A stretch of DNA of 64,000 nt, taken from Mobula hypostoma (taxonomy: Eukaryota). How positions within the stretch are numbered: position 1 is the first letter of the stretch; each line of letters begins with the position of its first letter. A model generated the notes under the pieces. The model worked only from the letters and a program-made list of their open reading frames with translations. It ran no database searches and was not told the DNA's origin. Made by a program: the position numbers and the translations under genes. Where the stretch lies: contig NC_086097.1 of assembly GCF_963921235.1 (NCBI RefSeq), positions 131,566,001 through 131,630,000 of the forward strand. Direction: 5' to 3'. Of the stretch, positions 6,790 to 62,717 are shown piece by piece.

Positions 6790-7330
6790 GACATATTTTA
6801 TGAACCTATTATTCCCACAGTTATCTTGACTATATCTCTTTCCACCCTGTCTCCTGTAAAAATGCTATTCCTTTCTCTCAGTTCCTTCTTCCCCAGTGCA
6901 TCTGTTCTCAGGATGCAACTTTCCTTTCCAGGATATCAGAGGTGTCCTCCTTCTTCAAGGAATGGGGTTTTCCTTCCTCCACCGTAGCTGCTCCCTCTCC
7001 CACATTTCCTCCACATCCTAAACATCCGCTCTCATTCCATCTTCCCACCGCCTGAACAGTGACATAGCTCCTTTTGTCCTTACCTACACCACATGAACCT
7101 CCACATCCAATACATCATCCGCTATATCTTTCGCCATCTCCAAATGAATCCTACCACCAAACACATCTTTACTTCCCTTCCCTTCCTCTTTCCGCAGGAA
7201 TCGCTCCCTCCACAATTCCTTTGTCCATTCATTGTTTTCCACTAATATCCCTTCCAGCATTTATCCCTGCAAGCAGCCAAAGTACTACATCTTCCCATTC
7301 ACCTCCTCCCTCACCTCCATTCAGGGCATT
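6790..7330 (+). mobile_element. Penelope-like element RT C-terminal/linker fragment
   Basis: Frameshifted DIFYEP..HSYLDY.S.HPVSCKNAIPFSQF..CSQDATF..SSFFKEWGFP, plus a PCKQPK motif leading toward the GIY-YIG domain. Confidence 0.8.
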
Positions 7331-9221: not shown

Positions 9222-9983
9222 GTGTTGTTTGTTTCAAAACCAGATGGTTATAGGGAAGTAATTGTTGCTGAGGCAGACAAGTGGGTCACGGTTAGGAGGG
9301 GGAAGGGGAAAAGGCAGGTGATGGGGAGTACCCCGGTGGCTGTGCCCCTTAACAACAGGTACTCCTGTTTGAGTACTGTTGGGGGGGACAGCTTACCCGG
9401 GGGAAGCGACAGTGGCCCTGCCTCCGGCACAGAGTCTGGCCCTGTAGCTCAGAAGGGTAGGGCAAGGAAGAGGAGGGCAGTTGTGATAGGGGACTCGATA
9501 GTAAGTGGGTCAGATAGGCGATTCTGTGGACGCAGTCCAGAGACCCGGATGGTAGTTTGCCTCCCTGGTGCCAGGGTCCGGGATATTTCTGATCGTGTCC
9601 AAGATATCCTGAAGTGGGAGGGTGAGGAGCCAGAGGTCGTGGTACATATAGGTACCAATGACATAGGTAGGAAAAGGGATGAGGTCCTGAAAGGAGAATA
9701 TAGGGGGCTAGGAAGGGAGTTGAGAAAAAGGACCGCAAAGGTAGTAATCTCGGGATTACTGCCTGTGCCACGCGACAGTGAGAGTAGGAATGCGATGAGG
9801 TGGAGGATAAATGCGTGGCTGAGGGATTGGAGCAGGGGGCAGGGATTCAAGTTTTTGGATCATTGGGACCTCTATTGGTGCAGGCGTGACCTGTACAAAA
9901 AGGACGGGTTACACTTGAATCCTAGGGGGACCAATATCCTGGCAGGGAGATTAGCGGGGGCTACTGAGGTGACTTTAAACTAG
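9222..9983 (+). CDS. CR1 ORF1p, SGNH/GDSL esterase-like domain (5'-partial; the first ~17 codons are probably flanking DNA)
   Basis: SGNH blocks VIGDSIV, CLPGA, HIGTND and DGLH; ends ACT TTA AAC TAG. Confidence 0.92.
   Translation: MLFVSKPDGYREVIVAEADKWVTVRRGKGKRQVMGSTPVAVPLNNRYSCLSTVGGDSLPGGSDSGPASGTESGPVAQKGRARKRRAVVIGDSIVSGSDRRFCGRSPETRMVVCLPGARVRDISDRVQDILKWEGEEPEVVVHIGTNDIGRKRDEVLKGEYRGLGRELRKRTAKVVISGLLPVPRDSESRNAMRWRINAWLRDWSRGQGFKFLDHWDLYWCRRDLYKKDGLHLNPRGTNILAGRLAGATEVTLN
9974..9980 (+). promoter_or_regulatory. Candidate -1 ribosomal frameshift slippery site T TTA AAC
   Basis: X_XXY_YYZ heptamer in ORF1 phase immediately before the ORF1 TAG; its -1 frame is ORF2. Confidence 0.6.
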
Positions 9984-9988
9984 AATGG

Positions 9989-12900: not shown

Positions 12901-12994
12901 CAGTTCATTGGCTATGTTTAAGAGGGAGTTAGATATGGACCTTGTGGCTACGGGGATCAGGGGGTATGGAGGGAAGGCTGGGGTGGGGTTCTGA
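9989..12994 (+). CDS. CR1 ORF2p: APE endonuclease plus reverse transcriptase; uninterrupted, with no AUG before 10592
   Basis: APE motifs CVNARS, GITETW, VYRPP, MGDFN and SDH; RT motifs KSPGPDG, YRPVSL, YLDFQKAFD, GVPQGSVLGP and FADD. The frame is open from 9968. Confidence 0.97.
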   Translation: MGGGNQIKEARREEVSSRQRDGNQCRETEGCKVSVEAKSTKEKSKSGRPTNPGQALKRAKRVVKERLKALCVNARSIRNKVDGFKVQIIINDYDIVGITETWLQGDQGWELNVQGYSIFRRDRHEGRGDGVALLVKKEINAIERKDISREDVESIWVELRNTKGQKTLVGVVYRPPNSSSEVGDGIKQEIRNVCNKGTAVIMGDFNLHVDWVNQIGKGAEEEDFLECMRDGFLNQHVEEPTRQQAILDWVLSNEEGLISDLVVRGPLGKSDHNMVEFFIKMESDIVNSETKVLNLKRGNFEGMRRELAKIDWQMTLKGLTVDMQWLAFKGCMDELQQLFIPVWQKNKSRKIVHPWLTREIRDSINSKEVAYKLARESGSPEDWEKFRVQQRRTKGLIRKGKKDYERKLAENIKTDCKSFYRYVKRKRLIKTNVGPLQTETGELIMGSKDMADQLNNYFGSVFTKEDINNLPEIVRDRGSSEMEELSEIHVSREVVLGKLKGLKADKSPGPDGLHPRVLKEVAQEIVDALVIIFQNSLDSGLVPEDWRVANVTPLFKKGGREKPGNYRPVSLTSVVGKLLESVIKDVITAHLESGEMIGQSQHGFVKGKSCLTNLIDFFEDVTSRVDRGEPVDVVYLDFQKAFDKVPHRRLVCKLKAHGIGGKVLVWVENWLADRKQRVGINGTFSEWQAVTSGVPQGSVLGPQLFTIYINDLDEGIKCSISKFADDTKLGGSVSSEEDARRMQGDLDRLGEWANSWQMQFNVDKCEVIHFGGKNRKTDYYLNGGRLGKGEVQRDLGVIIHQSLKVGMQVQQAVKKANGMLAFIARGFEYRSREVLLQLYKALVRPHLEYCVQFWSPNLRKDIFAIEGVQSRFTRLIPGMAGLSYEERLDELGLYSLEFRRLRGDLIETYKILKGLDRLDAGRLFPMLGRSRTRGHSLRIEGKPFRTEIRKNFFTQRMVNLWNSLPQQTVEASSLAMFKRELDMDLVATGIRGYGGKAGVGF

Positions 12995-13027
12995 GTTGGA
13001 TGATCAGCCATGATCATAATAAATGGC

Positions 13028-13093
13028 GGTGCAGGCTCGAAGGGCCGAATGGCCTACTCCTGCACCTATTTTCTATGTTTCTATGTTTCTATG
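13028..13093 (+). other. CR1 3' stem-loop and 8-bp microsatellite tail
   Basis: GGTGCAGG (13028-13035) pairs with CCTGCACC (13059-13066) around GGCC-GAAT-GGCC, followed by TTTCTATG x3. The same structure is in copies 2 and 3. Confidence 0.85.
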
Positions 13094-17397: not shown

Positions 17398-19458
17398 AAT
17401 CAAGGAAGGTAGTGCACCCGTGGCTGACAAGAGAAATTAGGGATAGTATCAATTCCAAAGAAGTAGCATACAAATTAGCCAGAGAAAGTGGCTCACCTGA
17501 GGACTGGGAGAAATTCAGAGTTCAGCAGAGGAGGACAAAGGGCTTAATTAGGAAGGGGAAAAAAGATTATGAGAGAAAACTGGCAGAGAACATAAAAACT
17601 GACTGTAAAAGCTTTTATAGATATGTAAAAAGGAAAAGACTGATAAAGACAAATGTAGGTCCCCTGCAGACAGAAACAGGTGAATTGATTATGGGGAGCA
17701 AGGACATGGCAGACCAATTGAATAATTACTTTGGTTCTGTCTTCACTAAGGAGGACATAAATAATCTTCCAGAAATAGTAAGGGACAGAGGGTCCAGTGA
17801 GATGGAGGAACTGAGCGAAATACATGTTAGTAGGGAAGTGGTGTTAGGTAAATTGAAGGGATTGAAGGCAGATAAATCCCCAGGGCCAGATGGTCTGCAT
17901 CCCAGAGTGCTTAAGGAAGTAGCCCAAGAAATAGTGGATGCATTAGTGATAATCTTTCAAAACTCGTTAGATTCTGGACTAGTTCCTGAGGATTGGAGGG
18001 TGGCTAATGTAACCCCACTTTTTAAAAAAGGAGGGAGAGAGAAACCGGGGAATTATAGGCCGGTTAGCCTAACGTCGGTGGTGGGGAAACTGCTGGAGTC
18101 AGTTATCAAGGATGTGATAACAGCACATTTGGAAAGCGGTGAAATGATCGGACAAAGTCAGCATGGATTTGTGAAAGGAAAATCATGTCTGACGAATCTC
18201 ATAGAATTTTTTGAGGATGTAACTAGTAGAGTGGATAGGGGAGAACCAGTGGATGTGGTATATTTGGATTTTCAAAAGGCTTTTGACAAGGTCCCACACA
18301 GGAGATTAGTGTGCAAACTTAAAGCACACGGTATTGGGGGTAAGGTATTGGTGTGGGTGGAGAATTGGTTAGCAGACAGGAAGCAAAGAGTGGGAATAAA
18401 CGGGACCTTTTCAGAATGGCAGGCGGTGACTAGTGGGGTACCGCAAGGCTCAGTGCTGGGACCCCAGTTGTTTACAATATATATTAATGACTTGGATGAG
18501 GGAATTAAATGCAGCATCTCCAAGTTTGCGGATGACATGAAGCTGGGTGGCAGTGTTAGCAGTGAGGAGGATGCTAAGAGGATGCAGGGTGACTTGGATA
18601 GGTTGGGTGAGTGGGCAAACTCGTGGCAGATGCAATTTAATGTGGATAAATGTGAAGTTATCCACTTTGGTGGCAAAAATAGGAAAACAGATTATTATCT
18701 GAATGGTGGCCGATTAGGAAAAGGGGAGGTGCAACGAGACCTGGGTGTCATTATACACCAGTCATTGAAAGTGGGCATGCAGGTACAACAGGCGGTGAAA
18801 AAGGCGAACGGTATGCTGGCATTTATAGCGAGAGGATTCGAGTACAGGAGCAGGGAGGTACTACTGCAGTTGTACAAGGCCTTGGTGAGACCACACCTGG
18901 AGTATTGTGTGCAGTTTTGGTCCCCTAATCTGAGGAAAGACATCTTTGCCATAGAGGGAGTACAAAGAAGGTTCACCAGATTGATTCCTGGGATGGCAGG
19001 TCTTTCATATGAAGAAAGACTGGATGAACTGGGCTTGTACTCGTTGGAATTTAGAAGATTGAGGGGGGATCTGATTGAAACGTATAAGATCCTAAAGGGA
19101 TTGGACAGGCTAGATGCGGGAAGATTGTTCCCGATGTTGGGGAGGTCCAGAACGAGGGGTCACAGTTTGAGGATAGAGGGGAAGCCTTTTAGGACCGAGA
19201 TTAGGAAAAACTTCTTCACACAGAGAGTGGTGAATCTGTGGAATTCTCTGCCACAGCAAACTGTTGAGGCCAGTTCATTAGCTATGTTTAAAAGGAAGTT
19301 AGATATGGCCCTTGTGGCTACAGGGGTCAGGGGGTATGGAGGGAAGGCTGGGTTCTGAGTTGGATGATCAGCCATGATCATAATAAATGGCGGTGCAGGC
19401 TCGAAGGGCCAAATGGCCTACTCCTGCACCTATTTTCTATGTTTCTATGTTTCTATGT
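17398..19458 (+). mobile_element. CR1 LINE copy 2, 5'-truncated
   Basis: Near-identical to copy 1 from about 11028 onward; GTTAC lies on both flanks (17393-17397 and 19457-19461). Confidence 0.97.
17412..19358 (+). CDS. CR1 ORF2 RT portion (5'-partial, uninterrupted)
   Basis: Same RT motifs as copy 1; no endonuclease domain. Confidence 0.9.
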   Translation: MHPWLTREIRDSINSKEVAYKLARESGSPEDWEKFRVQQRRTKGLIRKGKKDYERKLAENIKTDCKSFYRYVKRKRLIKTNVGPLQTETGELIMGSKDMADQLNNYFGSVFTKEDINNLPEIVRDRGSSEMEELSEIHVSREVVLGKLKGLKADKSPGPDGLHPRVLKEVAQEIVDALVIIFQNSLDSGLVPEDWRVANVTPLFKKGGREKPGNYRPVSLTSVVGKLLESVIKDVITAHLESGEMIGQSQHGFVKGKSCLTNLIEFFEDVTSRVDRGEPVDVVYLDFQKAFDKVPHRRLVCKLKAHGIGGKVLVWVENWLADRKQRVGINGTFSEWQAVTSGVPQGSVLGPQLFTIYINDLDEGIKCSISKFADDMKLGGSVSSEEDAKRMQGDLDRLGEWANSWQMQFNVDKCEVIHFGGKNRKTDYYLNGGRLGKGEVQRDLGVIIHQSLKVGMQVQQAVKKANGMLAFIARGFEYRSREVLLQLYKALVRPHLEYCVQFWSPNLRKDIFAIEGVQRRFTRLIPGMAGLSYEERLDELGLYSLEFRRLRGDLIETYKILKGLDRLDAGRLFPMLGRSRTRGHSLRIEGKPFRTEIRKNFFTQRVVNLWNSLPQQTVEASSLAMFKRKLDMALVATGVRGYGGKAGF

Positions 19459-28569: not shown

Positions 28570-28705
28570 CGTCCTGATGAAGGGTCTCATCCTGAAAGGT
28601 CGACTGTTCACCTTTTTCCATATATGCTCCCTGGCCTGCTGAGTTCCTCCAGTGTTTTGTGTGTGTTGTTTGGATTTCCAGCATCTGCTGATTTTCTCGT
28701 CTTTG
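28570..28705 (+). mobile_element. PLE terminal repeat starting at a hammerhead-like core
   Basis: GTC-CTGATGA-AGGGTCTCATCCT-GAAAG-GTC-GAC, with helix II and helix III mutated. Confidence 0.75.
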
Positions 28706-34049: not shown

Positions 34050-34385
34050 GAGATTAGAGATGAGATCAAAGATCTGTTTTATTTGTCACGTGTGCGTCGA
34101 AACATCAAAACATACCATGAAATACATTGTTTGTGTCAATGACCAACACTGTCCGAAGGTACACTGGGGGCAGCCTGCAAGTGCTGCTATGCTTCTGGCG
34201 CCAGTGTAGCATGCCCACAACTTACTAGCCTGTATGTCTTTTGGGTGTGGATGGAAACCGGAGCACTCGGAGGAAACCCACACACTCAAGGGATGAATAT
34301 ATGAACTCCTTACAGACAACAGTAGGAATTGAACCACAAATCACTGGTGCTGTAAAGTGTTGTGCTGGTCACTACACCCCTGTGC
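34050..34385 (-). mobile_element. V-SINE with a Rex1-like 3' tail
   Basis: GGAAACCGGAGCACTCGGAGGAAACCCAC V-domain; GGAATTGAACC B-box complement; minus-strand tail GTGACAAATAAAAC. Confidence 0.7.
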
Positions 34386-34982
34386 TGTAAAGTGTTGTGC
34401 TGGTCACTACACCCCTGTGCGGTAAAGTTTTGTGCTGGTCACTATACCCCTGTGCCGTAAAGTGTTGTGCTGGTCACTACACTCCCGTGCCATAAAGTGT
34501 TGTGCTGACCACTACACCCCTGTGCTGTAAAGTTTTGTGCTGACCACTACATCGCTGTGCTGTAAAGTGTTGTGCTGGTCACTACACCCCTGTGCTATAA
34601 AGTTTTGTGCTGACCACTACATCGCTGTGCTGTAAAGTGTTGTGCTGGTCACTACACCCCTGTGCTATAAAGTGTTGTGCTGGTTACTCCACCCCTGTGC
34701 TGTAAAGCGTTGTGCTGGTCGCTACACTCCTGTGCCGTAAAGTGTTGTGCTGACCACTACACTCCTGTGCTGTAAAGCGTTGTGCTGGTCACCACACCCC
34801 TGTGCTGTAAAGTGTTGTGCTGGTCATTACACTCCTGTGCTGTAAAATGTTGTGCTGGTTACTCCACCCCTATGCTGTAAAGTGTTGTGCTGGTCACTAC
34901 ACCCCTGTGCTGTGAAGTGTTGTGCTGGTCACTACACTCCTGTGCTGTAAAGTGTTGTGCTGGTCGCTACCCCCCTGTGCTG
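34348..34982. repeat. 35-bp minisatellite, 18 units, consensus TGCTGTAAAGTGTTGTGCTGGTCACTACACCCCTG
   Basis: Direct tandem units in constant 35-bp phase (34348, 34383 ... 34943) with no spacers. Confidence 0.97.
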
Positions 34983-36450: not shown

Positions 36451-38292
36451 GTATAATAAATGAGAAAATAACTATAAATGAGTACTAGAAATTAACTAGA
36501 CAGTAGGAATTGATCTGAACTGTGAGAAGAAATTTGCTAATCCAATTCCCTCAAAGGAAGTGTATGACTGGGTCATCTTCTGGTCAGCCTCTTGTGAAGC
36601 CCCTTCACAAACTAAGCAGTTAACTTCAGCAATTGAAAATGGTTAAAGTTTTAAAGCATAAATTTCTGCAAATGACTTCTACTGAGCAATAAAATCAAAA
36701 CTCGATTCGTAATTTTTGTTATGTTTATGGCGCAGTCAAGCTTACAATACAGTTAGTCATTTGTAATGTTTATCACCACTGTCAAATCCATAATACAGCC
36801 CAGACAGTATGCAATATTGATCTGAGTAAATACACATTTCTTCGGACATATTTGTACAACAGCATATCTCTGTGATCCACTCTCAGGAATGGTAAGAGAC
36901 CATTCAGTCCTAGTTTGTTATGGCTGCTCAGTATCGTAACTCCTTAGTGACGTAATCCTTAAGATCTTTGGCTAACGTAAATCTGTTGTCTCCCTTCACA
37001 GCCTAGTCCAGCATGGGCACGGCCTTGTCTACAATTGGTAGTGTCTATTATCAAGAATTTTCTATAGATTAACTGTATCCTAACTAGTTGCACCATGACC
37101 TATAACAGCCATTCCAACACACAGGAATGCACGAGGCTGCAGAGGCTGGGGGACGTAGGGCAGTCCGTCATGGGCACAGTGCTCTCCACCATTGGCAGCA
37201 CCTAGAGGAGGTGCTGCCTCAGGAACTTAGTGTCTCTCAACAACCCTACCACCCAGGTCACGTCCTCTCTTTGCCACAACTGAAAGGGCAGGAGGCGCCG
37301 AAGCCTAAAATCCCACACTAACAGATTCAGGGAAAAATACTTTGCTCCAACATCAGGCTGACCTGCAAAACCCTAACCTGACCCCGTCAATAGAGCACTA
37401 TGGACTATTTCTTGCACAACTATGGACTTGTTTCTGATTTTTTGTTTGTGGTCATGCCTTGTTTTGCACAACCTTCCTCCTTCACTGTCTTGTACGATTT
37501 ATGTTCTGTGTGTAGCTCAATCTATGTGTCTGTCATGCTGCTGCAAGCGGATTTTTCATTGTACCTGTACCTCACTGCACCTGTGCACATGACAATAAAC
37601 TTGACTTGACTGGACTTCATTTAGCTCCTTAGGGACAAATGCCAAATTTGCTCTCTCTGTTGTATAAAGATGTGAATTCTGAGTGGTCTTGATTTAAATT
37701 TAGGGTGATAGCATCTTATTCTAGACAATGTAGATTCTTCCTGTTGAACTCTAATTATCTTAAGGGGAGAAGAATCTATGAATCTGCTGTCATAATAGAA
37801 TCCTTATTGTCTCACACATTCTGGTGAATGGGTGTTTCACAAAGCATTATTTAGAGATGATCAGAGAGATCCCCGCCGTTTCCCGAGCAACATTTATCCC
37901 TTTCCCAAAGTCACTAGAAGTGGACAATCTGGTCATTATTCTGTTACTGTTTAAGGTGCTTACTGTGTGGCGATTGCCTGCTTTGTTTACAGTTGTGAGA
38001 GCATTTCAAACGTGTGTCATGAGGACATTCCAAAAGATAAAATGGAAGAACAAAACAGCGCTCCAGAAGGCTTGTGGCCACAAAAATTTAGTGAGGTCAC
38101 AGGAATAATGTGGGTAATGACTCTGAGACATAGATCAGGAACAGATAACTTTGTGTATTTTCTCCTTCTAAAGGTGGCACCTCTAGCCTAGCAGCACTGG
38201 TACTGTGCATGGAGTATCATTCTGGATCTTCGAAAAGTCATCAAGTCAAGAAGAGTCCATTGTCTTTTCCCCTGGCATTAAATACTAGAGGA

Positions 38293-38516
38293 ACACACAT
38301 AAAAGTTGCTGGTGAACGCAGCAGGCCAGGCAGCATCTAGAGGAAGAGGTACAGTCGACGTTTCAGGCCGAGACCCTTCGTCAGAACTAGGTCTCGGCCC
38401 GAAACGTCGACTGTACCTCTTCCTTGAGATGCTGCCGGGCCTGCTGCGTTCACCAGCAACTTCTATGTGTGTTGCTTGAAATTCCAGCAACTGCAGATAT
38501 GCTCGTGTTTGCGTTT
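38293..38516. mobile_element. Fold-back PLE-derived mini-element (224 bp) with a 15-bp TSD
   Basis: Inverted arms of about 80 bp around 38375-38390; TTAAATACTAGAGGA at 38278-38292 and 38517-38531. Confidence 0.9.
38352..38389 (-). ncRNA. Minimal type I hammerhead ribozyme motif (intact core, GUC site)
   Basis: UAGUU-CUGACGA-A-GGGU(CUCG)GCCU-GAAAC-GUC^-GACUG. Confidence 0.75.
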
Positions 38517-40289
38517 TTAAATACTAGAGGACGTATCTTTACAGTGGGGGCGGGGGGGAGAAGTTTAAAGATTTATGAAGCATATTTTTTACGCAGAATG
38601 CTAGGTGCCAAAGGAACAGGGTGGAAGCAGATACGATGGTAATGTTTAAGAGCCATTCAGACAGGCACATGAACATGTGGAAAATGGAGGGTTATCAACC
38701 ATGTGTAGGTAGATGGTATCAGTTTAAATTGGGATCATGGTCAGTCCGATATCATGTGCTATATTTTTCTATGTTCTATGTGTAAAATCTGTGTCTTTTA
38801 CAAAGCGAACTCTTAGATATTTGAGTACAAAAATCTGTGCTGTTACTCCAGTGGAGAGCTGAGCTGATGGCCTGCTGGACTGTCAGAAGTGCTGTCTTTC
38901 AAAAGAGACACTGAATTGAGATCACTTCAGCTCTTGGTGAATTAAAAGTCTCACATGGCCAGCTTCATTTTAGGTGTTCACCCTTAAGTCTCCAGAATAA
39001 AAGACTTGCATTTTTTCTGTCATGCCTTGCACAACCGCTAGTTGCGTTGATGAACCTGGGAACCGATAGATGATCAGAGTTTGTGAGTTTAGTGTCACTC
39101 CATAGACTTCAACATCGCTGTTTGTGGAATCTTGCTGTGCTAACATTTACTGCAGTGCAGCAAGATCACAAAATTACTTGATTGCCTGCAAAATCTTTGT
39201 GATATAACAAGTCACAGAGGATGCTGTAGAGACGTAATCCTTTCATTTTTACTTCACTGCTGATGCACCTACTATCTTCTCTCAGCTGCCTACAGAGTAC
39301 ATTGACTGTTATCTAAAATGGCCACGAGGTTCCATTCTCAGGTCACATTTACTCCCTGGCTGAATACAATGGCCAAGTAGCAGCTTTAAACAGCACTCCA
39401 AGGAATATACATTAACCCCCTCCAATACGTCACCTGAAGAAAGCCATTGACTGCTGAAGCATTATTAATTTTTGAACCCTTTGCAAAGTCATTTTAAACT
39501 CCAGTATCTTGGATTAAAAGTGCACAGTAAATCATTTCAATGAGCCTTGGGCACAATTCGGACATTTAATTTATTTTTTTAACGTATCAAAGCAAAACTT
39601 TAAACGTAAACATTAATACCCAGCGGGAAAAAATGTAGCGATGAATTAATGTAAAAATCACAAAGATTTGGAGCTTCAGTATTCTTCTGGCTTCTCGCGT
39701 TATTGTTGTGCTGCTGAAGGCTTATAGATTTTTACTCTCCTCAATCGTTGGTCTGAGAAAGGTCATTAAGGGCAGAGCTGCAATACAGAATGATATAAGC
39801 AGTCATCTGCAGACCACAGCAAATCAATCATAATTAACACTCTCAGCTACTTCCTGGATATAAAACCTCTGGAGTAAAAGGCAAATGCAAGGGATCAGTG
39901 GACACAGTGCAGAAACAGAGCAAACAGGTTTTACAGCAACTGATCTGTGCTGGGTCACCCCTAGCCCACAATTGCTTCTTACATTTAACTCCTATGCTGA
40001 AAAAAAATCATTAAAACAAAGCTATGGAAGAGATGATTAAGCTTTGCAAAGAAACAGATTCTTCAGAGGCAGCAAACTTATTGGTCCCGAATAATTTATT
40101 TTGTCAAAAATATTTGTGAAATTCTCTCTGGTTCCTCTCACCAGGAATTTTTTATTGATCAAGATCAAAGGGCAGTTACTGGTGAATGGTGCCAATTAAG
40201 CACAGATAACACTGATAAAGTAAAGATGAATGATTTAATTGGCTTACATCTTGACTGCAGTCATCCAAACATCTATCATAGGCTATTAA

Positions 40290-41112
40290 TACCCAGTAAA
40301 TGCACTTGGAATATCATGGCCAATGCTGGGGATCATCTCTCAGGAAAGATGCACTGGCCATCAAGAGAGTCCTGAGGAGGTTCACAAAAATGAACGCAAG
40401 AATGAAAAGCTTAACCTGTGAGGAGACTTGATGTCTCTTGGCCTGTACTCAATGAAGTTAAGAAATTTGAGGGAGGGTGGGTCTCATTGAAACGTTTTAG
40501 ATATTGAAAGCACTTGTAGAGTGGACGTGGAGAGGATGTTTTTGTTAGTAGGAGAGTCTAAGATGCAAGGGGACAATAATAGAAAAATGTGGCAAATCAT
40601 GGACATGAGATATCCCGCAGATGCTGGAAATCCAAAGCAAAGAACACAAGATGCTGGAGGAACTCAGTAGGTCAGGCAGCATCCATGGAAGTGAATAAAC
40701 AGTTGATGTTTCAAGCTGAGACCCTTCTTCAGAACTGGAAAGGAAGGGGTAAAATGCCAGAACAAAAAGGTGGAGGGAGCAGAAGGAGGATAGCTAGAAA
40801 GTGATAGGTGAAACCAAGTGGGCAGGAAAGAAAAAGGGATGGAGAGGAAGGAATCTCTCCAGCCTAAAGTGGCATCACTTTAGAACTGAGATTAAGAGGT
40901 ATCTCCTCAGCAGTGTGGTGAATCTGTGGAATTTGTTGCCACAGAAGAATATGGAGGCCAAGACATTGAATGATGCAGAAGTGACAGGTTCTTGGCCAGT
41001 AAATGGTTAAAGGCTACAGAGAGAAGGCTGGAGAACGGAGTTAAGAAAAAAGTCAGCAGTGATTGAAAGGCAAATAGACTCAAGGGGCCAAATTCCCTAA
41101 TATTTCCGATCA
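40290..41112 (+). mobile_element. Old CR1 3' fragment with a nested minus-strand PLE repeat (about 40600-40860)
   Basis: LRKDALAIKRVLRRFTKM..FRTEIKRYLLSSVVNLWNLLPQ. Confidence 0.7.
40700..40737 (-). ncRNA. Minimal hammerhead motif (AUC site)
   Basis: CAGUU-CUGAAGA-A-GGGU(CUCA)GCUU-GAAAC-AUC^-AACUG, with a perfect helix I. Confidence 0.6.
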
Positions 41113-46380: not shown

Positions 46381-46597
46381 CACAGTGACTGCATTTAGCA
46401 TGATTTTAGGAGCAGTACTGAGGACAAATTCTTCTGCTGATATTTACCAAGGTTTTGAGGTTCATAATTCTGACAATTTGTTTGCCTCCGGATCTGGCCT
46501 TCCAGAACAGTGCGCCTCTCGCAACAAAACTTTTCCAATTTTAGAAACACTTCTAAATTTGCGCCATCTCCACCAAATCAGGAAGAAATAAAAGTAG

Positions 46598-46760
46598 CAA
46601 CACACACAAAAAAATGCTGGTGAACGCCTGAGGAAGGGTCTCGACCCGAAACGTCGACTGTACTTCTTCCTATAGATGCTGCCTGGCCTGCTGCGTTCAC
46701 CAGCATTTTTTGTATCTGTTGCTTGAATTTCCAGTATCTGCAGATTTCCTCATGTTTGCG
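46598..46760. mobile_element. Asymmetric fold-back PLE-derived mini-element (163 bp) with a 14-bp TSD
   Basis: A 30-bp inverted arm, then the core CTGAGGA-A-GGGT(CTCG)ACCC-GAAAC-GTC-GACTG (46628-46660); AGAAATA(A/G)AAGTAG at 46584-46597 and 46761-46774. Confidence 0.85.
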
Positions 46761-48654: not shown

Positions 48655-51600
48655 AAGAGGCTGCAGATGCTAGAATCTGGCACACCAAAATCTGCTGGTG
48701 GAACGCAGCAGGTCGAACAGCATCTGAGGAGGGAAAGGAATTACTGAGGTTTCAGGTAGAAACCCTGTATCAGGATGAATCATTTAGTGGCTCTCAAAGA
48801 GACACACTCACCAAAACAAATCCATTGAGATAACCCTCAAAGTAAAAGTGAAAGTTGAGTGAATTGTTATATGCATGAGTACATGTGGGAACAGATACAA
48901 TGAAAAGCCTGAAACAGCATCACAGACACATCGGATCAGATAAGCAGCATTCGCATAAGAAAAACATCGACTAAACATAAAGTATTCTGGCATTTTCCCC
49001 CTTCCTTTCCAATCCTGAAGAAAGGTCTTGGTCCAAAAATTTGGCTGCTTATTTACTTCCATAGATGCTACCTGACCTGCTGAGTTCCTCTAACAGTTTG
49101 TGTGCATTGCTCTGGATTTCGAACGTTTGAAGAATGTATTGTGATTATAAATTATACACGTCTTTTTAAAAGCAAGAACACAATCGGAGGAACAAAAATG
49201 TGTATTGGAGTGCAAGGCGGTCAAAGTAGTGATAGCTTTGCTGTAATGTAGAGATGATTAGGACATTGTATACAGGACATTGCAGCACAGTACAGGCCCT
49301 TTGACCCATGATGCTGTGCCGACCTTTAAGTGGACTCTAAGATCAATCAGTTGTGCGGGTTGGTTCAAGAACTGAATGGTTGAAGGGAAGTAACTGTTCT
49401 TGAACTTGGTGATGTGGGTGTTCAGGCTTCTGTACCACCTGCCCAATAGAAGATTTCATGGTCTGGATGGTGGGGACCTTTGATGATAGATGCTGGCTTC
49501 TTAAGGCATCATTATATTGTGTTTTCTCTTCATTGTCATTAAAAAATATCCTTCTTGCATCAGGATGAACCTAAAAATGAAGATTGTGCAGAGGCAGAAA
49601 GTTATTCTCTGCTGTAAATGCTAAATGTGTGATGCAGGAGTATTGCTTATTGGACACTGTTTATTTCGGAAACAGAGCTAATTGCACCCAGAGCGTTGCA
49701 TCATGCACTTGGAGCATGCAATAGAGGAAGGAGAGTTGCCTCACAAGGTTTATGGTTAATGCTCCCATGGCTTTTCTTCAGTGTTTGTCTGCACCAATGT
49801 CCCATCAACCTTTGTGCCACTTGCAGGCATAGTTGGCACTGCCTGGCAACTCATATTGGAAATAAAATTGGCTTTGGGTCATTGAATCCAATGAATGATA
49901 TCAGATCAGCAGATATTACACTGTGATGGGCACTACATTCTGGCAAGAACTGAAATGGGAAGAGCAAGAGTTATAAAGCATGCCAGTGATTTTAATGGAA
50001 GACATCCCACTTGCCAGGATGTGCAGCTTTACATCATCCAGGACAAAGTGGTTTATTCCATTTGTATCCCTTCCACCATCCTAAACATTCACAGCCCACC
50101 ATTGCTGCTCTGTGCCTGCAGTGCACCTGCTTTGCAAAATGTGCAGAAGTCACACACCTAACTCTTTATACGGCATCTGAAACCCACAACTTCTGTCACT
50201 GAGAATGGCAAGGCCAGCTGGTGCATGGGAACATCAGCACTTGCATACTTCCCTCCAAACCAGACCTGGTTGGAAATACAACAAAGTACAAAGTAAATCT
50301 ATTACCAAAGTACATAAATGTCACCACATACAGCCCTGAGATTCATTTTTATGGGCATTTGCAGTAAATACAAGGAACACAATAGAATCAGTTTCAATAC
50401 AGAGATTGCACCCAACAGGACAGACAAATAATCAATGTGCAAAAGACAATAAACTGTGCAGGTACAAAAAAAAACACAATAAATATCAAGAACATGAGAT
50501 GAAGAGTCCTTGAAAGTGAGTCCATATGTTGTGGGAACAGTGCAGTGTTGGGGTGAAGTTGAGTGAAGTTATCTGTTTCAAGAATGTGATTGTTGAGGGT
50601 CCTGAGGCTCCTGTACCTTCTTCTCGGTGGCAGCATGGTGGGGGTCCTTGATGATGGAAGCTGCTTTCCTGTAGCAGCATTCTGTACATATGTGCTCAAT
50701 GGTGAGAGGGCTTTACCTGTGATGGACTGAATCATATCCATAACTTTTTCTAAGCTCTTCCGCTCAAGGGCATTGGTGTTTTGATCCTTTTTTGCTGTAG
50801 GATATAAACTCTGGACCTTTTTCCCCAACAGCACTTAAGAAAGCACTTTAACCAGAAGGCAAGAAAATGGCTCACCATCTTCTTTTCAAGAACAATTAAC
50901 GTTGAGCTTGAAACTCTAGATCTAGCCAAACAAATAAAGTTTAATTAATACACTGAGGAAATAACGCACTTTCCATTGCTGTCTGCTGTCAACTCTGAAC
51001 CCAAGAGTTAGCACTACAAACAAAGATGGGAGAATTCCAAGAATATCTCACAGAAAACATTCTCTCAAGTAACAGAGAGGGGATATCATAATCAAATTTC
51101 AAAGTAAATTCTATTATCGGATTACATATATGTTGCCATATACAGCCAGTGAGATTCACCTTCTTGAGGGTATACTCAGCAAATCTATAGAATACTAACT
51201 AAACCAGGATCAATGAAAAATCAACTAGAGTACAGAAGACAACAACTACGTAAATGCAAATTAAAATAAATAGTAATAAATAACGAGAACATGAGATAAA
51301 GAGACCTTGAAAGTGAGATCATTGGTTGTAGGAACATTTCAGTGATGGGGCAAGTGAATTTGAGTGAAGTTATCCCCTTTTCTTCAATAGCATGATGACC
51401 GAGGGTTAGTAAATGTTCTTAAACCTGGTGGTATGTGTCCTGAGGCTCTTGCACCTTCTACCTGATGGCAGCAGCGAGGAGAGAGCATGACCTAGGTGGT
51501 GGGGATCTCCACAAAAGAACAAAAGATAGAAGGGATTTTTTTTTGTGATAATCAGGCTTTTGATCAGATTATCAACTCCAGTCACACCATGTGCAAATGT

Positions 51601-52392: not shown

Positions 52393-52698
52393 AAGCTCAC
52401 CTTCAGTGCATTAGATATATTCTTAAACTTATTGTTTAACACTTGAATCAAGCACATTCTGACTTCCAGAGAGAACCAAAACTAATATCATTGCATTTTC
52501 CAGGAGCACTCTGCACAACATTTAAGTTATATTTCATTACTTTTCTGAGAACCTTATCACTGCTATGGGCATTATTTCTGTTTGCAAAAAACCTTGCTAC
52601 ATAAAAACATAGAAACATAGAAAATAGGTGCAGGGGTAGGCCATTCGGCCCTTCGAGCCTGCACCGCCATTTATTATGATCATGGCTGATCATCCAAC

Positions 52699-55600
52699 TC
52701 AGAACCCTGCCCCAGCCTTCCCTCCATACCCCCTGATCCCCGTAGCCACAAGGGCCATATCTAACTCCCTCTTAAACATAGCCAATGAACTGGCCTCAAC
52801 TGTTTCCTGTGGCAGAGAATTCCACAGATTCACCACTCTCTGTGTAAAGAAGTTTTTCCTAATCTCGGTCCTAAAAGGCTTCCCCTTTATCCTCAAACTG
52901 TGACCCCTCGTTCTGGACTTCCCCAACATCGGGAACAATCTTCCTGCATCTAGCCTGTCCAATCCCTTTAGGATTTTATACGTTTCAATCAGATCCCCCC
53001 TCAATCTTCTAAATTCCAACGAGTACAAGCCCAGTTCATCCAGTCTTTCTTCATATGAAAGTCCTGCCATCCCAGGAATCAATCTGGTGAACCTTCTTTC
53101 TACTCCCTCTATGGCAAGGATGTCTTTCCTCAGATTAGGGGACCAAAACTGCACACAATACTCCAGGTGTGGTCTCACCAAGCCCTTGTACAACTGCAGT
53201 AGTACCTCCCTGCTCCTGTACTCGAATCCTCTCGCTATAAATGCCAGCATACCATTTGCCTTTTTCACCACCTGCTGTACCTGCATGCCCACTTTCAATG
53301 ACTGGTGTATAATGACACCCAAGTCTCGTTGCACCTCCCCTTTTCCTAATCGGCCACCATTCAGATAATAATCTGTTTTCCTATTTTTGCCGCCAAAGTG
53401 GATAACTTCACATTTATCCACATTAAATTGCATCTGCCATGAGTTTGCCCACTCACCCAACCTATCCAAGTCACTCTGCATCCTCTTAGCATCCTCCTCA
53501 CAGCTAACACTGCCACCCAGCTTCGTGTCATCCGCAAACTTGGAGATGCTGCATTTAATTCCCTCATCCAAGTCATTAATATATATTGTAAACAACTGGG
53601 GTCCCAGCACTGAGCCTTGCGGTACCCCACTAGTCACTGCCTGCCATTCTGAAAAGGTCCCGTTTATTCCCACTCTTTGCTTCCTGTCTGCTAACCAATT
53701 CTCTATCCACATCAATACCTTACCCCCAATACCTTGTGCTTCAAGTTTGCACACTAATCTCCTGTGTGGGACCTTGTCAAAAGCCTTTTGAAAATCCAAA
53801 TATACCACATCCACTGGTTCTCCCCTATCCACTCTACTAGTTACATCCTCAAAAAATTCTATGAGATTCGTCAGACATGATTTTCCTTTCACAAATCCAT
53901 GCTGACTTTGTCCGATGATTTCACCGCTTTCCAAATGTGCTGTTATAACATCTTTGATAACTGACTCCAGCAGTTTCCCCACCACCAACGTTAGGCTAAC
54001 CGGTCTATAATTCCCCGGTTTCTCTCTCCCTCCTTTTTTAAGAAGTGGGGTTACATTAGCCACCCTCCAATCCTCAGGAACTAGTCCAGAATCTAACGAG
54101 TTTTGAAAAATTATCACTAATGCATCCACTATTTCTTGGGCTACTTCCTTAAGCACTCTGGGATGCAGACCATCTGGCCCTGGGGATTTAGCTGCCTTTA
54201 ATCCCTTCAATTTACCTAACACCACTTCCCTACTAACATGTATTTCGCTCAGTTCCTCCATCTCACTGGACCCTCTGTCCCCTACTATTTCTGGAAGATT
54301 ATTTATGTCCTCATTAGTGAAGACAGAACCAAAGTAATTATTCAATTGGTCTGCCATGTCCTTGCTCCCCATAATCAATTCACCCGTTTCTGTCTGTATG
54401 GGATCTATATTTGTCTTTACCAGTCTTTTCCTTTTTACATATCTATAAAAGCTTTTACAGTCAGTTTTTATGTTCCCTGCCAGTTTTCTCTCATAATCTT
54501 TTTTCCCCTTCCTAATTAAGCCCTTTGTCCTCCTCTGCTGAACTCTGAATTTCTCCCAGTCCTCAGGTGAGCCACTTTTTCTGGCTAATTTGTATGCTTC
54601 TTCTTTGGAATTGATACTATCCCTAATTTCTCTTGTCAGCCACGGATGCACTACCTTCCTTGATTTATTCTTTTGCCAAACTGGGATGAACAATTGTTGT
54701 AGTTCATCCATGCAATCTTTAAATGCTTGCCATTGCATATCCACCGTCAATCCTTTAAGTGTCATTTGCCAGTCTATCTTAGCTAATTCACACCTCATAC
54801 CTTCAAAGTTACCCCTCTTTAAGTTCAGAACCTTTGTTTCTGAATTAACTATGTCATTCTCCATCTTAATGAAGAATTCCACCATATTATGGTCACTCTT
54901 ACCCAAGGGGCCTCTCACGACAAGATTGCTAATTAACCCTTCCTCATTGCTCAAAACCCAGTCCAGAATAGCCTGCTCTCTAGTTGGTTCCTCGACATGT
55001 TGGTTCAAAAAACCATCCCGCATACATTCCAAGAAATCCTCTTCCTCAGCACCTTTACCAATTTGGTTCACCCAATCTACATGTAGATTGAAGTCACCCA
55101 TTATAACTGCTGTTCCTTTATTGCACACATTTCTAATTTCCTGTTTAATACCATCTCCAACCTCACTACTACTGTTAGGTGGCCTGTACACAACTCCCAC
55201 CAGCGTTTTCTGCCCCTTAGTGTTACGCAGCTCTACCCATATCGATTCCACATCTTCCCGGCTTATGTCCTTCCTTTCTATTGCGTTAATCTCCTCTTTA
55301 ACCAGCAACGCCACCCCACCTGCTTTTCTTTCATGTCTATCCCTCCTGAATATTGAATATCCCTGAACGTTGAGTTCCCATCCTTGGTCACCCTGGAGCC
55401 ATGTCTCTGTGATCCCAACTATATCATAATCATTAATAATAACCTACACTTTCAATTCATCCACCTTGTTACGAATGCTCCTTGCATTGACACACAAAGC
55501 CTTCAGGCGCTCTTTTACAACTCTCTTAGCCCTTATACAATTATGTTGAAAAGTGATCCTGTTTAATGCTTGCCCTGGATTTGTCGGCCTGCCACTTTTA

Positions 55601-55746
55601 CTTTTCTCCTTACTACTTTTTGCTTCTACCCTCTCTTTACACCCCTCTGTCTCTCTGCACTCATTCCCATCCCCCTGTTGTGACCTAACCTTCTCTCGCC
55701 TAGCCTCTTTAATTTGATTCCCACCCCCAAACCATTCTAGTTTAAA
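52699..55746 (-). pseudogene. CR1 ORF2 with one premature stop (TAG at 55444-55446; CAG in copy 1)
   Basis: Manual translation from the heptamer reads FKLEWFGGGNQ..NKVDELKV*VIINDYD, then the same frame continues into the 871-aa ORF 52699-55314. Confidence 0.9.
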
Positions 55747-56289
55747 GTCACCTCAGTAGCCCTCGCTAATCTCCCTGCCAGGATATTGGTCCCCCTAGGA
55801 TTCAAGTGTAACCCGTCCTTTTTGTACAGGTCACGCCTGCGCCAAAAGAGGTCCCAATGATCCAAAAACTTGAATCCCTGCCCCCTGCTCCAATCCCTCA
55901 GCCACGCATTTATCCTCCACCTCATCGCATTCCTACTCTCACTGTCGCGTGGCACCGGCAGTAATCCCGAGATTACTACCTTTGCGGTCCTTTTTCTCAA
56001 CTCCCTTCCTAGCCCCCTATATTCTCCTTTCAGGACCTCATCCCTTTTCCTACCTATGTCATTGGTACCTATATGTACCACGGCCTCTGGCTCCTCACCC
56101 TCCCACTTCAGGATATCTTGAACACGATCAGAAATATCCCGGACCCTGACACCAGGGAGGCAAACTACCATCCGGGATTCTGGACTGCGTCCACAGAATC
56201 GCCTGTCTGACCCCCTTACTATCGAGTCCCCTATCACAACTGCCTTCCTCTTCCTTGCCCTACCCTTCTGAGCTACAGGGCCAGACTCT
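55737..56289 (-). CDS. CR1 ORF1p SGNH esterase domain (5'-partial)
   Basis: IGDSIV, HIGTND and DGLH; ends ..EVTLN*. Confidence 0.9.
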
Positions 56290-58456: not shown

Positions 58457-58684
58457 CACTCACAACACGCTGGGGGAACTCAGCAGGTCGGGCAGCATCC
58501 GTAGAGATGATCAGTCAACGTTTTGGGCCGGAAACCTTCGTCAGGAGTGAAGAGGGAAGGGGCAGAGGCCCTATAAAGAAGGTGGGGATAGGGTGGGAAG
58601 GAGAAGGCTGGTAGGTTCCAGGCTCATCTTTCCCCTTACTAGTTTTTCACCTGGATCTTTCCCTTTACTGGTTTTTCACCTGGA
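58457..58684 (-). mobile_element. PLE-repeat insertion in the Gypsy pol gene with an 8-bp TSD
   Basis: AATATCAA at 58449-58456 and 58685-58692; mutated hammerhead core CTGACGA..AAAACGTT. Confidence 0.8.
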
Positions 58685-61576
58685 AATATCAAATAGGTCC
58701 AACAATTCCTGGGGGTTGCTAACTTCTACCAGAAGTTCATCAGGAACTTCGGCTCAGTAGTAGCTCCACTTACAGCCCTAACTAAGAAATCCATGGGCCC
58801 TTTTGTCTGCACTACTGAAACAGAGGCTGCTTTTGAAGAGCTTAAACTGTGGTTTATTACAGCTTCCATCTTGGTTTCTCCTAACCCGGACCTTCCCTTC
58901 ATCAAGGAGGTGGACACCTCAGACATTGGAATAGGCGCTGCCTTGTCTCAATGATCACTTTCGGACAGTAAACTGCATCCATATGCATTTCTCTCCCAGG
59001 TGGCTATCCCGGGCAGAGAGGAACTATGACATCGAGAATTGGAAACTTCTTGCAGTTAGCTTTGGAGGAATGGTGTCACTGGCTAGAGGGAGCGAGGAAC
59101 ATTTCATCGTTTGGACTGGCCATAGGAACCTGGCCTACAGTCAGGAGGCCAAGGGGCTGAATTCTTAACCGGTTTAATTTCATCCTGACCTATCGACCAG
59201 GGTTTAAAATCAGAAGCCTTATGCCCTGTCCTGCCATTTTGATAAACGGGAATGAGAGGAGAAGCCTACCACCATTTTGCCCCAAGCCAGTGTCGAGCAC
59301 CAATTAATCGGGGAATTGACGCTCTTGTTCACGAGACCCAAGCGCAGGGGGAGGTGTTTAAGAATGGTCCTCTAAGTCGGCTGTTCATCCCAAGTTCTGT
59401 CCGGTCCCAGGTACTTCAATGGGGACATTCGTCAAGAGTGATTGCACATCCAGGGATTACCAACCTCTTTGAATTTATCAAGAGGCGGTATCGGTAGCCT
59501 GAACTGTTGCGAGAAGTTTAGCAGTTTGTGCAGGCATGCAAGGTGTGTGCCTGGAACAAGGAGCCTAACTTTAAGGGCTCTTCCACACCTACTCATTCAG
59601 AAGAGACATTGGGCATACATCTCCATGGACTTTGTCACAGGTCTCCAGCCAACCAAGGGGAAGTCAGTCATTATGGTGGTTTTTGATTGGTTTTCAAAAG
59701 CCTGCAAGTTCATTGCCTTGGAGAAGCTACCTTCTGTGGCAGAGACGACTGTGATTGTCCTGGATTCCTGGTGGATGTTATCTCTGATCATGGTCCACAA
59801 TTCCCATCACATTTCAGGAAGGTTTTCTGTAAACTGATAGGGGCAACAGCAAGTCTTTCCTTTGGACTTCACCTGCAGTCTAACAGTCAGACGGAGCGGA
59901 CCAACCAAGATTTAGAATGTATCCTGAGATGCCTGGCCTCGGAAAGACCTGTAGATTGCTGTGACCATTTGAAGTGGGCAGAGATCGCCCACAACACCTT
60001 ATGGCACTCGGCACATGGGATGTCACCACTCCAGTGCCAATTTGGTTTTCCTCCCCTTCTCTTTCTGGACAAGAAGCCGAGGTTGTTGTCCCTGTGGCAG
60101 AAGATCTTGTCCAACGCTGCAAGGAGAAATGGATGAGGACAAGAGCAATTTTGCTGATCTCCACCCCAAGAGCAGAGACCAAGGCAAACCGAAGGAGAAG
60201 TCTGGGACCCGTGTTACAGCCTGGGCAACAGGTCTGGCTGTGCACTCATGATTTGCCTCTCCGAGAAGAATCTCGAAAGTTGGCCCCAAGTTCATTGGTC
60301 CCGTTAAGATCCTGAGGAAAGTAAACCAGATGGCTTACATCTTGCAGCTCCCCAAGGCCCTAAAGATCAACACCATCTTCCACATCTATAAATTAAAACC
60401 TGCCTGCACCAGCTGCTTCATCCCACCACTATTGTTTCCGCTGCTATCCAGGTTTATTGTGGGGACAGGTCTTCACAGCGAAAAGACTTTTAGATTTGTG
60501 TACTGTTCATGGTATTCAGCAATACCTAGTGGACTGGGAGGGATTTGGAGCCGAGGAAGGTGTTGGGTGCAGGAAAGAGACATCTTGGATCCGACTCTCA
60601 TCCGCAATTACCATCACCGCCTCTCTGAGCAACCAGAGTCAAGAATCAGCCATGAAGAGTGGTACACTTGAACATTGGTTCAATCTCAATCGTAAGCCTT
60701 ACTAGTGTTTTCGTCTAGCATTTGTTCTGTGCTCAGTTCTTGATCCATTTTGATATTGTGTGTCGATCACTGCTTCGGTACTCCATCATTTGGATCCACG
60801 CCATCCTTTTCAAGGACTCTTGTCTCAGATCAAGAGGGGAGAATAAGATTGATGGGAGTCCTCAAATATGAGCCAGTATTGACCCAATGGGCTGAATGGC
60901 TCCTTTCTGTACTGTGACATAAAATCAGATTAGGAAACAATAGTAAACTAGATGTCTCAACCAGTGATCCTCACTGTATGAAGACGTTGGGTCAGGAAAA
61001 GATTGCAATAGTTGTCAAGCTGGTCTTTAAAGAATGGGGAGTGGGAGTGTGTTGAGAGATGAGGCAGAGTCCACTCCTTCAGAAGTCTTCTCCCTCACGA
61101 ACACAGGGATGAAGATGGTGGAAAAGGCCTCAGAGGAGAAAGAAGGGTACTGTTACTTGAGTGTCTACATGTATTTTAAGCTTGCATTGTTCTGAAGAGT
61201 TCAGGCATTGATCAAATGGGACAAGGAATACCTGACACATTTTTACCTCTCCTCCTCTCTCTGCTTTCTGCAGGGATTCTCCCACCATGATCCCCTTGTC
61301 CATTCATCACTCCTCACTAATCTCTCCCCTGGCACTGATCCCTGCAAGCAGCAGAAGTGCTACACCTGCCCATTCACCCTCTCCATCACCTCCATTCAGG
61401 GATGCCAAATAGTCCTTCCAGGTGAATCTGATGGGGTCATCTATTCTATCCAGTGCTTCTGATGCTGTCTCCTCTACACTGGCGAGACCAACGTAGATTG
61501 GGGGACCACTTTGCCAAGCACCTTTGCTCCATCCACAAAGAGCAGATTTTCCCAGTGACCAATCATTTCAATTCAA

Positions 61577-61794
61577 TCAACTCACACAAAATGCTGGAGG
61601 AGCTCAGCAGGCCAGGTAGCATCTACGATCGAGAGTACAGTCAACGTTTCAGGCCAAGACCCTTCATCAGGACCCTCAGCCTGAAACATTGACTATACTC
61701 TTTTCCGTAGAAGCTGCCAGGCCTGCTGAGTTCCTCCAGCATTTTGTGTGTGTTGCTTGGATTTCCAGAAACTGCAGATTTTCTCATGTTTGGG
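61577..61794. mobile_element. Fold-back PLE-derived mini-element (218 bp) with a 12-bp TSD
   Basis: Inverted arms around 61660-61676; ATTTCAATTCAA at 61565-61576 and 61795-61806. Confidence 0.88.
61638..61675 (-). ncRNA. Minimal hammerhead motif (GUU site)
   Basis: GGGUC-CUGAUGA-A-GGGU(CUUG)GCCU-GAAAC-GUU^-GACUG. Confidence 0.65.
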
Positions 61795-62717
61795 ATTTCA
61801 ATTCAAATCTCCACTTCCATTCTGAGATGTCAGTCCATGGCCTCCTACTCTGCCATGATGAGGCCACTCTCAGGCTGAAGGAGCAACAGCATATAGCCTC
61901 CAACCTGATGGCATGAACATAGATTTCTCCAACTTCTGGTAAGTTTTTTCTCATTTCCCCTTCTCTCTTTTTCATTTCCACACTTTGGTCCTCTCTTACC
62001 GCGTCTCCTCACCTGCTTATCACCTCCTATGGTGCCTCTCCTCCTTCCGTTTTTCCCATTGTCCACTTGTCTCTCCTACTAGATTCCTTTTTCTCTCGCC
62101 CTTTACTTTTTTCCACCTATCACTTCCCAGCTTCTTTCTTCATTCCACCTCCCCCATCTACCTAGCTTCACCTATCACCTTCAAGTTTTTACTTCTTCCC
62201 CTGCCCCCACCTTTTCATTTTGGCATCTTCCCCCTTTCCTTTCCAGTCCTGAAGAATGTCGACTATTTATTTCAGTACATGCTGCCTGAGCTGCAGAGTT
62301 CTCCTGCACGTTGCGTGCGTTGCTCTAGATTTCCAGCATCTACAGAATTTCTTGTCTTAAGAAATACCTGAGTTAGTTATGGGATGACTGAAACTACACC
62401 GACGGCAACTCTATCTGTCCATTTCCCGATTGTGTGAATTCCTGCATTATGTAAATATACACTTGATCTTATAGTAGCCAACGGCAATCGGATTTTGGTC
62501 CACAGTCAGCACTGCTGGAAAAGTCTCAGTTGGCAGGGCTCTCTGCTCTGAGCCAGATAATTGTGGATTTGCATCTTGCTCCTCAGCCCTGAGTCCACAA
62601 GTGAGACTGACTAAATGGAGAAGCACTTCAACATGCATCCAACAAAATGTTAATCTGAGGGTTTACTTTAAAATATCTCCGGTCGTTATCTGGATGATTA
62701 GAAAGGAAGGGCTCTCT

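Follow-up and report, generated by a model that had tools for sequence, protein, structure and literature searches.

We analyzed 64,000 nucleotides of the Mobula hypostoma genome (contig NC_086097.1, positions 131,566,001 to 131,630,000; this whole stretch is termed the window) and found that a 224-bp insert at window positions 38293 to 38516, which carries a hammerhead ribozyme motif, is a defunct two-armed copy, heavily truncated at its 5' end, of a 3.5-kb Penelope-like element (PLE) retrotransposon, i.e., an ordinary product of a known class. We propose, with a probability that we put at roughly 0.6, that this stub was made in a single insertion event by synthesis from two primers, run-off of both products at the RNA 5' end, and their joining. 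The arms likely meet just before the ribozyme because the element RNA begins there, rather than because the ribozyme cuts there. The locus itself is ordinary dead transposon scrap; its importance lies in the statistics of the family to which it belongs.

Element positions are given on a family scale counted from the G of the tail motif (0), on which the CUGA of the hammerhead lies at -90, the predicted cut site at -62, and the ATG near +78 (Table 1). The insert combines an inverted segment running from -95 to about +2/+6 with a forward segment running from -81 to +45. Its inverted arms (38289-38375 and 38390-38476) span 87 nt each with 93% complementarity and differ by 5 substitutions, and the segment 38293-38389 is 95% identical to the family consensus, with -95 marking the 5' edge of hammerhead helix I. 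The arms are nevertheless unequal: the 40-nt tail is found only on the right arm and lies outside the inverted repeat, and symmetric terminal inverted repeats at both ends are absent. The perfect 15-bp target-site duplication (TSD) claimed by a first-pass annotation, which was made from the letters alone, is indeed present. Since its first 6 nt (TTAAAT) are also the element's own continuation (beyond the tail, the template runs on as TTAAAT and then toward the start of the open reading frame [ORF] in read-through copies), the true stagger is 8 to 15 nt. The same annotation had the arms meeting right at the ribozyme, and this holds insofar as the junction adjoins helices I and II, but not for the cut site, which the junction precedes by 33 nt on the left arm and by 19 nt on the right. 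As for the target, when the empty site was modelled with one copy of the duplicated sequence, 3 of 32 matches to other repeats (60 to 61% identity) aligned straight across that copy, and the homologue of this region at locus L197 (L numbers are our locus labels) translates as the C terminus of a long interspersed nuclear element (LINE) ORF2, marking the target as an older repeat. The previous description of it as an old CR1 tail can be kept as regards an older LINE 3' repeat, whereas the label CR1 is presumptive. An assembly artefact is unlikely, given the TSD, the 5 substitutions between the arms, and the recurrence of the layout.

Table 1. Features of the two-armed insert and of related PLE copies in the window (TSD, target-site duplication; negative and positive numbers, family positions)
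Feature	Window position	Strand	Remarks
Left TSD, TTAAATACTAGAGGA	38278..38292	+	In old LINE 3' region
Inverted arm	38293..38389	-	PLE terminal repeat, from second start site (about +2 to +6) back to -95
Minimal type I hammerhead motif	38352..38389	-	Motif as defined in the available text of PMC4209133
Helix I 5' strand	38389-38385	-	
CUGACGA	38384-38378	-	
Helix II region	38377-38365	-	
GAAA	38364-38361	-	
CGUC	38360-38357	-	
Predicted cut	38357/38356	-	
Helix I 3' strand	38356-38352	-	
Head-to-head arm junction	38389..38390		Blunt; -95/-81
Forward arm, part complementary to left arm	38390..38476	+	Begins in helix II (-81); GAAA-CGUC kept, CUGANGA absent
One-sided 40-nt PLE tail	38477..38516	+	Between the two start sites; right arm only
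Right TSD	38517..38531	+	First 6 nt also match element continuation; possible priming microhomology
Two-armed family stub	46596-46760		Ends -25/-91; 14-bp TSD with one mismatch
Older two-armed family stub	61572-61805		Ends -93/-78
Older single-arm family stub	28571-28705		From -93
Older related PLE subfamily fragments, 69-79% identity	2686-4259, 7022-7327, 40617-40736, 48661-49087, 58473-58546, 61236-61942, 62276-62358		

The tail motif has 7,222 exact matches in variant A and 44,171 in variant B across the 3.48-Gb genome, with 0 for reversed controls. Longer family copies extend upstream via the 3' untranslated region into the end of the GIY-YIG coding region, and read-through copies continue into the ORF; the six long ones that we fetched (L238 to L243) include 3.5-kb units with reverse transcriptase (RT) motifs. 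Pfam searches with broken long copies recovered RVT_1 (E = 8.6e-5) and GIY-YIG (E = 1.3e-3), both under the curated cut-offs, and these full-length relatives support the origin in a PLE terminal repeat that had been assigned to the insert. The family displays the hallmarks of endonuclease-bearing (EN+) PLEs, namely, a parent ORF combining RT with a C-terminal GIY-YIG domain and pseudo-long terminal repeats (pLTRs) that arise from partial tandems and contain the hammerhead; the window copy adds an adjacent inverted 5'-truncated copy with a one-sided 30- to 40-bp tail and its 15-bp TSD. The linker between RT and GIY-YIG has the form CX4CxxC (CKRNKCYTC in L241), and the available text of PMC8557442 gives a CX2-5CxxC zinc finger-like RT-EN linker as the criterion for the Neptune clade, with Nematis likewise bearing it. 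By this linker criterion, the parent is a putative Neptune-type PLE.

To keep the choice of copies unbiased with respect to junctions, we anchored the sample on the tail, taking the first 100 listed variant A places and 72 copies from the first 70 variant B loci; these 172 copies, all on contig C1, favor young, tailed copies and are not a random genome-wide draw. An adjacent inverted arm was detected in at least 84 of them, a lower bound in that arms shorter than about 30 nt are missed (one arm, in L131, was added by hand). A TSD of at least 11 bp flanks 72 of the 84 two-armed copies, its exact core being mostly 13 to 15 bp, and the junction pairs are distinct in 83 of the 84.

The arms in this sample end preferentially just upstream of the ribozyme. 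Of 256 arms, 80 end in the zone from -75 to -99, which lies 13 to 37 nt upstream of the hammerhead cut site; this amounts to 80 ends in 4,091 nt at risk versus 153 in 45,209 nt elsewhere (1.96 versus 0.34 per 100 nt), a 5.8-fold enrichment (P = 5e-29). The limits of the zone were set on subfamily A, and the result was replicated in subfamily B, in which the enrichment is 7.1-fold for forward and 6.1-fold for inverted arms; copies without a detected second arm still show 4.3-fold. The commonest single end is -93 (10 of 256), and the interval from -90 to -97 holds 37. In contrast, the cut site (±3 nt) shows no overall enrichment (1.6-fold, P = 0.11). The zone sequence would be lost from a cleaved RNA. 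The first-pass annotation had supposed that junctions are placed nonrandomly near the ribozyme, for which the zone enrichment now provides the numbers, and, as one of two alternatives, that reverse transcription stops and folds back there. Stops do cluster close to the ribozyme, yet their position is upstream of the cut and they behave as a template end, and simple fold-back fits poorly with the arm lengths described below.

That the zone is the end of a template rather than a roadblock within it is suggested by how the two arms of a copy relate to each other. None of the 42 arms whose partner passes -110 stops in the zone, versus 64 of the 83 arms with a short partner; a roadblock is thereby disfavored, since a fold that stalls the enzyme would put every arm at risk. 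Three of the six long copies fetched begin at -80, -89, and -94. Among the 68 read-through loci examined (70 of 187 matches fetched, with 2 overlapping ones removed), both direct repeats of the partial tandems begin at an identical base in 7 of 35 (0.54 on average and at most 4 in permutations), a count that leaves out L244 and L251, which pass through the junction (9 of 37 with them); this pattern reads as an RNA end reached twice. In five copies (L240, L254, L257, L261, and L267), the rejoining point lies over 1 kb into the ORF, the points of departure being -83, -94, -94, -95, and -108. They look like a short terminal cDNA, ending between -83 and -108, that jumped 1.1 to 1.7 kb into the ORF and then ran on to the 5' end, yielding a new direct pLTR. 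The initiator-like motifs TCAGTT and TTAGTC occur at -100 to -91. A promoter within the pLTR has been described for the D. virilis PLE (available text of PMC2377424). A cap-derived extra G would be indistinguishable here, -93 being a templated G. The end distribution predicts that the 5' ends of element RNAs lie at -80 to -130, with a mode near -94, and it argues against ribozyme cleavage as the maker of most templates.

The second line of evidence concerns the number of primers. Of the 84 two-armed copies, 39 have an inverted arm that exceeds the forward, tail-bearing one by more than 5 nt (the excess reaching about 850 nt), 26 have a shorter inverted arm, and in 19 the two arms agree to within 5 nt. 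Simple fold-back fits this poorly because a tail-primed cDNA that folds back on itself cannot yield a longer inverted arm; the tail is also missing from the inverted arm. Moreover, the direct-orientation end of many partial tandems lies at +1 to +12, with the tail carried by the inverted arm, so priming also starts independently at the second site. The family has two start sites about 40 nt apart. The alleles carried by the two arms are discordant in 10 of 62 pairs at -46/-45 (28.7 expected if independent) and in 11 of 68 at -8/-7 (16.9 expected); both diagnostic sites exceed the background (4.0% in total, 1.4% for transversions), and from this excess we infer that a minority of insertions used two template versions. 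The arms of the window copy differ at -45, which is suggestive, at the level of a single site, of two template versions there too. In two-armed copies of subfamily A, the discordance at -7 is one-sided (forward T with inverted G in 10, the reverse in 1), and source elements with differing terminal repeats could account for it. Evidence for microhomology at the priming sites is weak, with means of 1.1 and 1.3 nt versus 0.42 and 0.46 by permutation, a null that is too low in that the TSDs had been defined as maximal matches.

On the mechanism that we favor, the GIY-YIG domain would cut the target with a stagger of about 13 to 15 nt, and both cut strands would prime cDNA on the element RNA. Priming would occur in the first terminal repeat of the transcript, only about 100 to 140 nt from its start, so that both cDNAs would run off the RNA 5' end just in front of the hammerhead; the stop zone would then correspond to that 5' end, probably the dispersed start site of an internal promoter. 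Repair would join the two cDNA ends head to head with little or no homology, and priming in the downstream repeat would give the long copies instead. Several observations weigh against this account. The 19 pairs ending within 5 nt are also what fold-back or coordinated synthesis predicts, and the arms usually share alleles, as the 10 discordant pairs against 28.7 indicate. Arm lengths are correlated (rho = 0.52), which weakens the test based on 0 of 42 if synthesis is coordinated. The ends are spread, with a shoulder from the mode at -93 to -130; the other three long copies begin at -273, at -352, and beyond -1059, and most short partial tandems have their rejoining point at -118 to -235 instead of at -94, contrary to a single start site. 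Exactly at -62 there are 5 of 255 arm ends versus 0.8 expected (P = 0.0014), 2 of them attributable to microhomology, and some templates may therefore be cleaved by the ribozyme. Finally, the start of the D. virilis RNA, as given in the available text of PMC2377424, is 46 nt before a 75-nt intron and hence well upstream of the ribozyme, and the start site proposed here is deduced solely from the ends of DNA copies.

Four other explanations were weighed against the same data. The first-pass annotation had offered, besides a recurrent product of PLE reverse transcription, a non-autonomous family akin to retrozymes or to miniature inverted-repeat transposable elements (MITEs), in which the 224-bp hairpin would be transcribed and reinserted as a unit, and had suggested comparing TSD-bearing copies and their junctions genome-wide. 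Look-alikes with TSDs of their own are abundant (12 to 17 bp in 28 of the 30 best, a query-biased set), their junctions are varied with some recurring, and the same junction is seen again in L004, L006, L286, and L287. Yet, among more than 51,000 family copies, the 26-nt junction of the window copy occurs once, and its consensus form occurs only 3 further times, all in the other subfamily and 2 of them with the tail on the opposite arm. Because of this rarity, we conclude that the insert was not amplified as a unit and represents no new mobile family; a MITE or other non-autonomous family would show numerous copies with an invariant internal structure, and these are not seen. With both tail polarities present and junctions that are mostly private, transposition as a unit is highly improbable, and the layout is that of a recurrent PLE product. 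Hammerhead self-cleavage as the source of the template 5' end, with junctions marking the cut, is very unlikely as well. It could draw on the small excess at -62 and on the core pattern that is intact in 59 of the 87 forward arms spanning the motif, but most stops lie upstream of the cut, and cleavage was dispensable in vitro according to the available text of PMC11167929. For the window copy, this route is refuted, as both of its arms extend past the cut site; it may apply to about 2% of arms.

The remaining two explanations retain a stop at or near the ribozyme. A single cDNA arrested in the ribozyme that folds back and serves as its own template, with later deletions in the center of the palindrome making the arms unequal, has in its favor the pairs that end within 5 nt, several of them at the identical base, the mostly shared alleles, and a proposal of self-priming for rotifer PLEs (available text of PMC3846280); asymmetric deletion of palindromes provides it with a loophole. 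Against it stand the 39 longer inverted arms, the lack of zone stops when the partner is long, the zone enrichment in single-armed copies, arms primed at the second site that cross sequence absent from the tail arm, and the excess of allele discordance. Fold-back is already disfavored as a general route, and we regard it as quite unlikely overall. We consider it unlikely, too, that the two-primer route operates on an RNA whose 5' end reflects not a transcription start but the blocking of 5'-to-3' exonuclease trimming at helix I by the ribozyme fold or bound protein. The commonest end, -93, does fall in the 5' strand of helix I (-95 to -91), and copies of an older subfamily in the window likewise end at -91 to -93; however, ends range from -75 to -130, ends repeated within one insertion are molecule specific (-83, -94, -108, -118, -128, -137, and -186), and the ribozyme monomer is predicted to misfold.

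The minus strand of the insert (38389 to 38352) displays the minimal type I features (CUGANGA, helix II, GAAA, palindromic 15.2-16.2, UH, and helix I), and the intact core reported in the first pass is real as a sequence motif (CUGACGA and GAAA-CGUC); the plus arm, also as reported, lacks CUGANGA and starts inside helix II at 38390. A scan of the window with Rfam at E ≤ 1 gave no hammerhead match, and the call consequently rests on the published description of minimal hammerhead ribozymes. Helix I has 5 bp, including two G-U pairs, and helix II merely 3 to 4 bp. Folding predictions render the monomer misfolded or inactive and, at the locus, lock the motif within the long hairpin (helix I pair probabilities of 0.0). 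The hammerhead here is probably a passenger. Minimal hammerheads of PLEs were found to be inactive as monomers and weak as dimers (available text of PMC4209133). Directly before helix I, family positions -114 to -97 (e.g., in L276 and L281) comprise a branch-site-like sequence, a pyrimidine tract, and CAG, resembling a 3' splice site; in the D. virilis PLE, an intron ends at helix I (same source). No spliced copies were seen among the family copies inspected. Splicing to the AG at -97 was rejected as an explanation of the ends, there being no common upstream exon and the TSDs abutting the arm ends. A stop at a branch point at -108, apparent in five read-through copies, was likewise discarded: in the raw sequence the ends lie at -109 to -111 and only seemed to coincide through a mismatch with the consensus, and TACTAAC is the less common variant.

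The layout of inverted pLTR, tail, and TSD is already published: EN+ PLE insertion units comprise an inverted 5'-truncated pLTR, a one-sided 30- to 40-bp tail, and a TSD (available text of PMC3846280 and PMC8557442). The present copies share with the units described there the head-to-head inverted terminal repeat, one-sided tail, TSD, pLTR hammerhead, and heavy 5' truncation, as well as the parental RT with C-terminal GIY-YIG and the CX2-5CxxC linker of Neptune type. They differ in that both arms of the window copy are about 100 nt long with no ORF left, in TSDs of 13 to 15 bp versus 8 to 10 bp in rotifers, and in having their ends quantified and clustering before helix I. Within the literature searched, from which subscription papers and bioRxiv supplements were excluded, we did not find quantified arm ends or run-off at the RNA start. 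The family end statistics are a useful addition beyond a single locus. For the anole Poseidon element PAc, the available text of PMC11167929 describes cutting and extension of both target strands in vitro, internal initiation of reverse transcription at two sites bounding the tail, and normal insertion by hammerhead mutants; the joining of inverted arms and the points at which cDNAs end are not dealt with there. The two RNA-internal start sites bounding the tail are common to PAc and the present family, which belongs to a different clade, has an ORF beginning about 78 nt after the tail motif and not in helix II, and shows a slight target-template microhomology of 1 to 3 nt. Relative to the minimal PLE hammerheads in the available text of PMC4209133, ours likewise lacks helix III and has the palindromic ACGU, the extra base before helix II, and a 5-bp helix I, but its helix II is shorter; opposite-strand pairs of such motifs 100 to 700 bp apart were noted there in 2014. 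The resemblance to metazoan non-long-terminal-repeat retrozymes, which are direct tandem units, each with a ribozyme, amplified as units (available text of PMC7229834 and bioRxiv 10.64898/2026.07.22.740005), extends to small size, lack of coding capacity, PLE relationship, and the type I hammerhead. The window insert instead has inverted arms, a single core, and a junction private to it, and direct tandem units each with a complete hammerhead are not found in it. A further parallel is the twin priming of L1 elements. In that process, synthesis is primed from each target strand and the two products end up joined head to head within the TSD, the inverted piece coming from further upstream in the RNA and without overlap; the present primers, in contrast, initiate about 40 nt from each other and produce two copies of one sequence.

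More tentatively, and at somewhat less than even odds, the stubs, which number in the tens of thousands, may be a fossil record of a PLE "strong-stop," in which double priming in the first terminal repeat is followed by run-off at the front edge of the hammerhead and then by either joining or a jump downstream. Joined products would give the inverted pLTR stubs, and a jump onto downstream RNA would give a direct pLTR and seed retrozyme-like tandem minis. According to the available text of PMC2377424 (Schostak 2008), there was no obvious mechanism for the inverted ends and pLTR regeneration of PLEs, and mechanistic work was called for in that of PMC8557442 (Craig 2021). If true, the strong-stop reading would cover pLTR regeneration and inverted ends with one model, a mechanism hitherto missing. 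Direct tandem, internally deleted PLE minis do occur at L213 (with L212), L221 (with L220), L251, L278, and L283, as well as at L210 and L217. Their units of about 280 to 500 bp join the ORF at +150 to +290 back to -120 to -230 and have a hammerhead each; a given junction is either repeated at one locus or traversed by both arms, and was therefore present in the template. These tandem minis, not the fold-back stubs, are the retrozyme-like derivatives in the present genome.

Elsewhere in the window there are three young LINE copies that are 96 to 99% alike (9431-13093 and 17398-19458 on the plus strand and 52600-56289 on the minus strand), with open frames of 1008, 671, and 914 aa, respectively; two of these copies are inverted relative to each other, 40 kb apart. 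A tandem array at 34347-34982 consists of 18 copies of a 35-bp unit.

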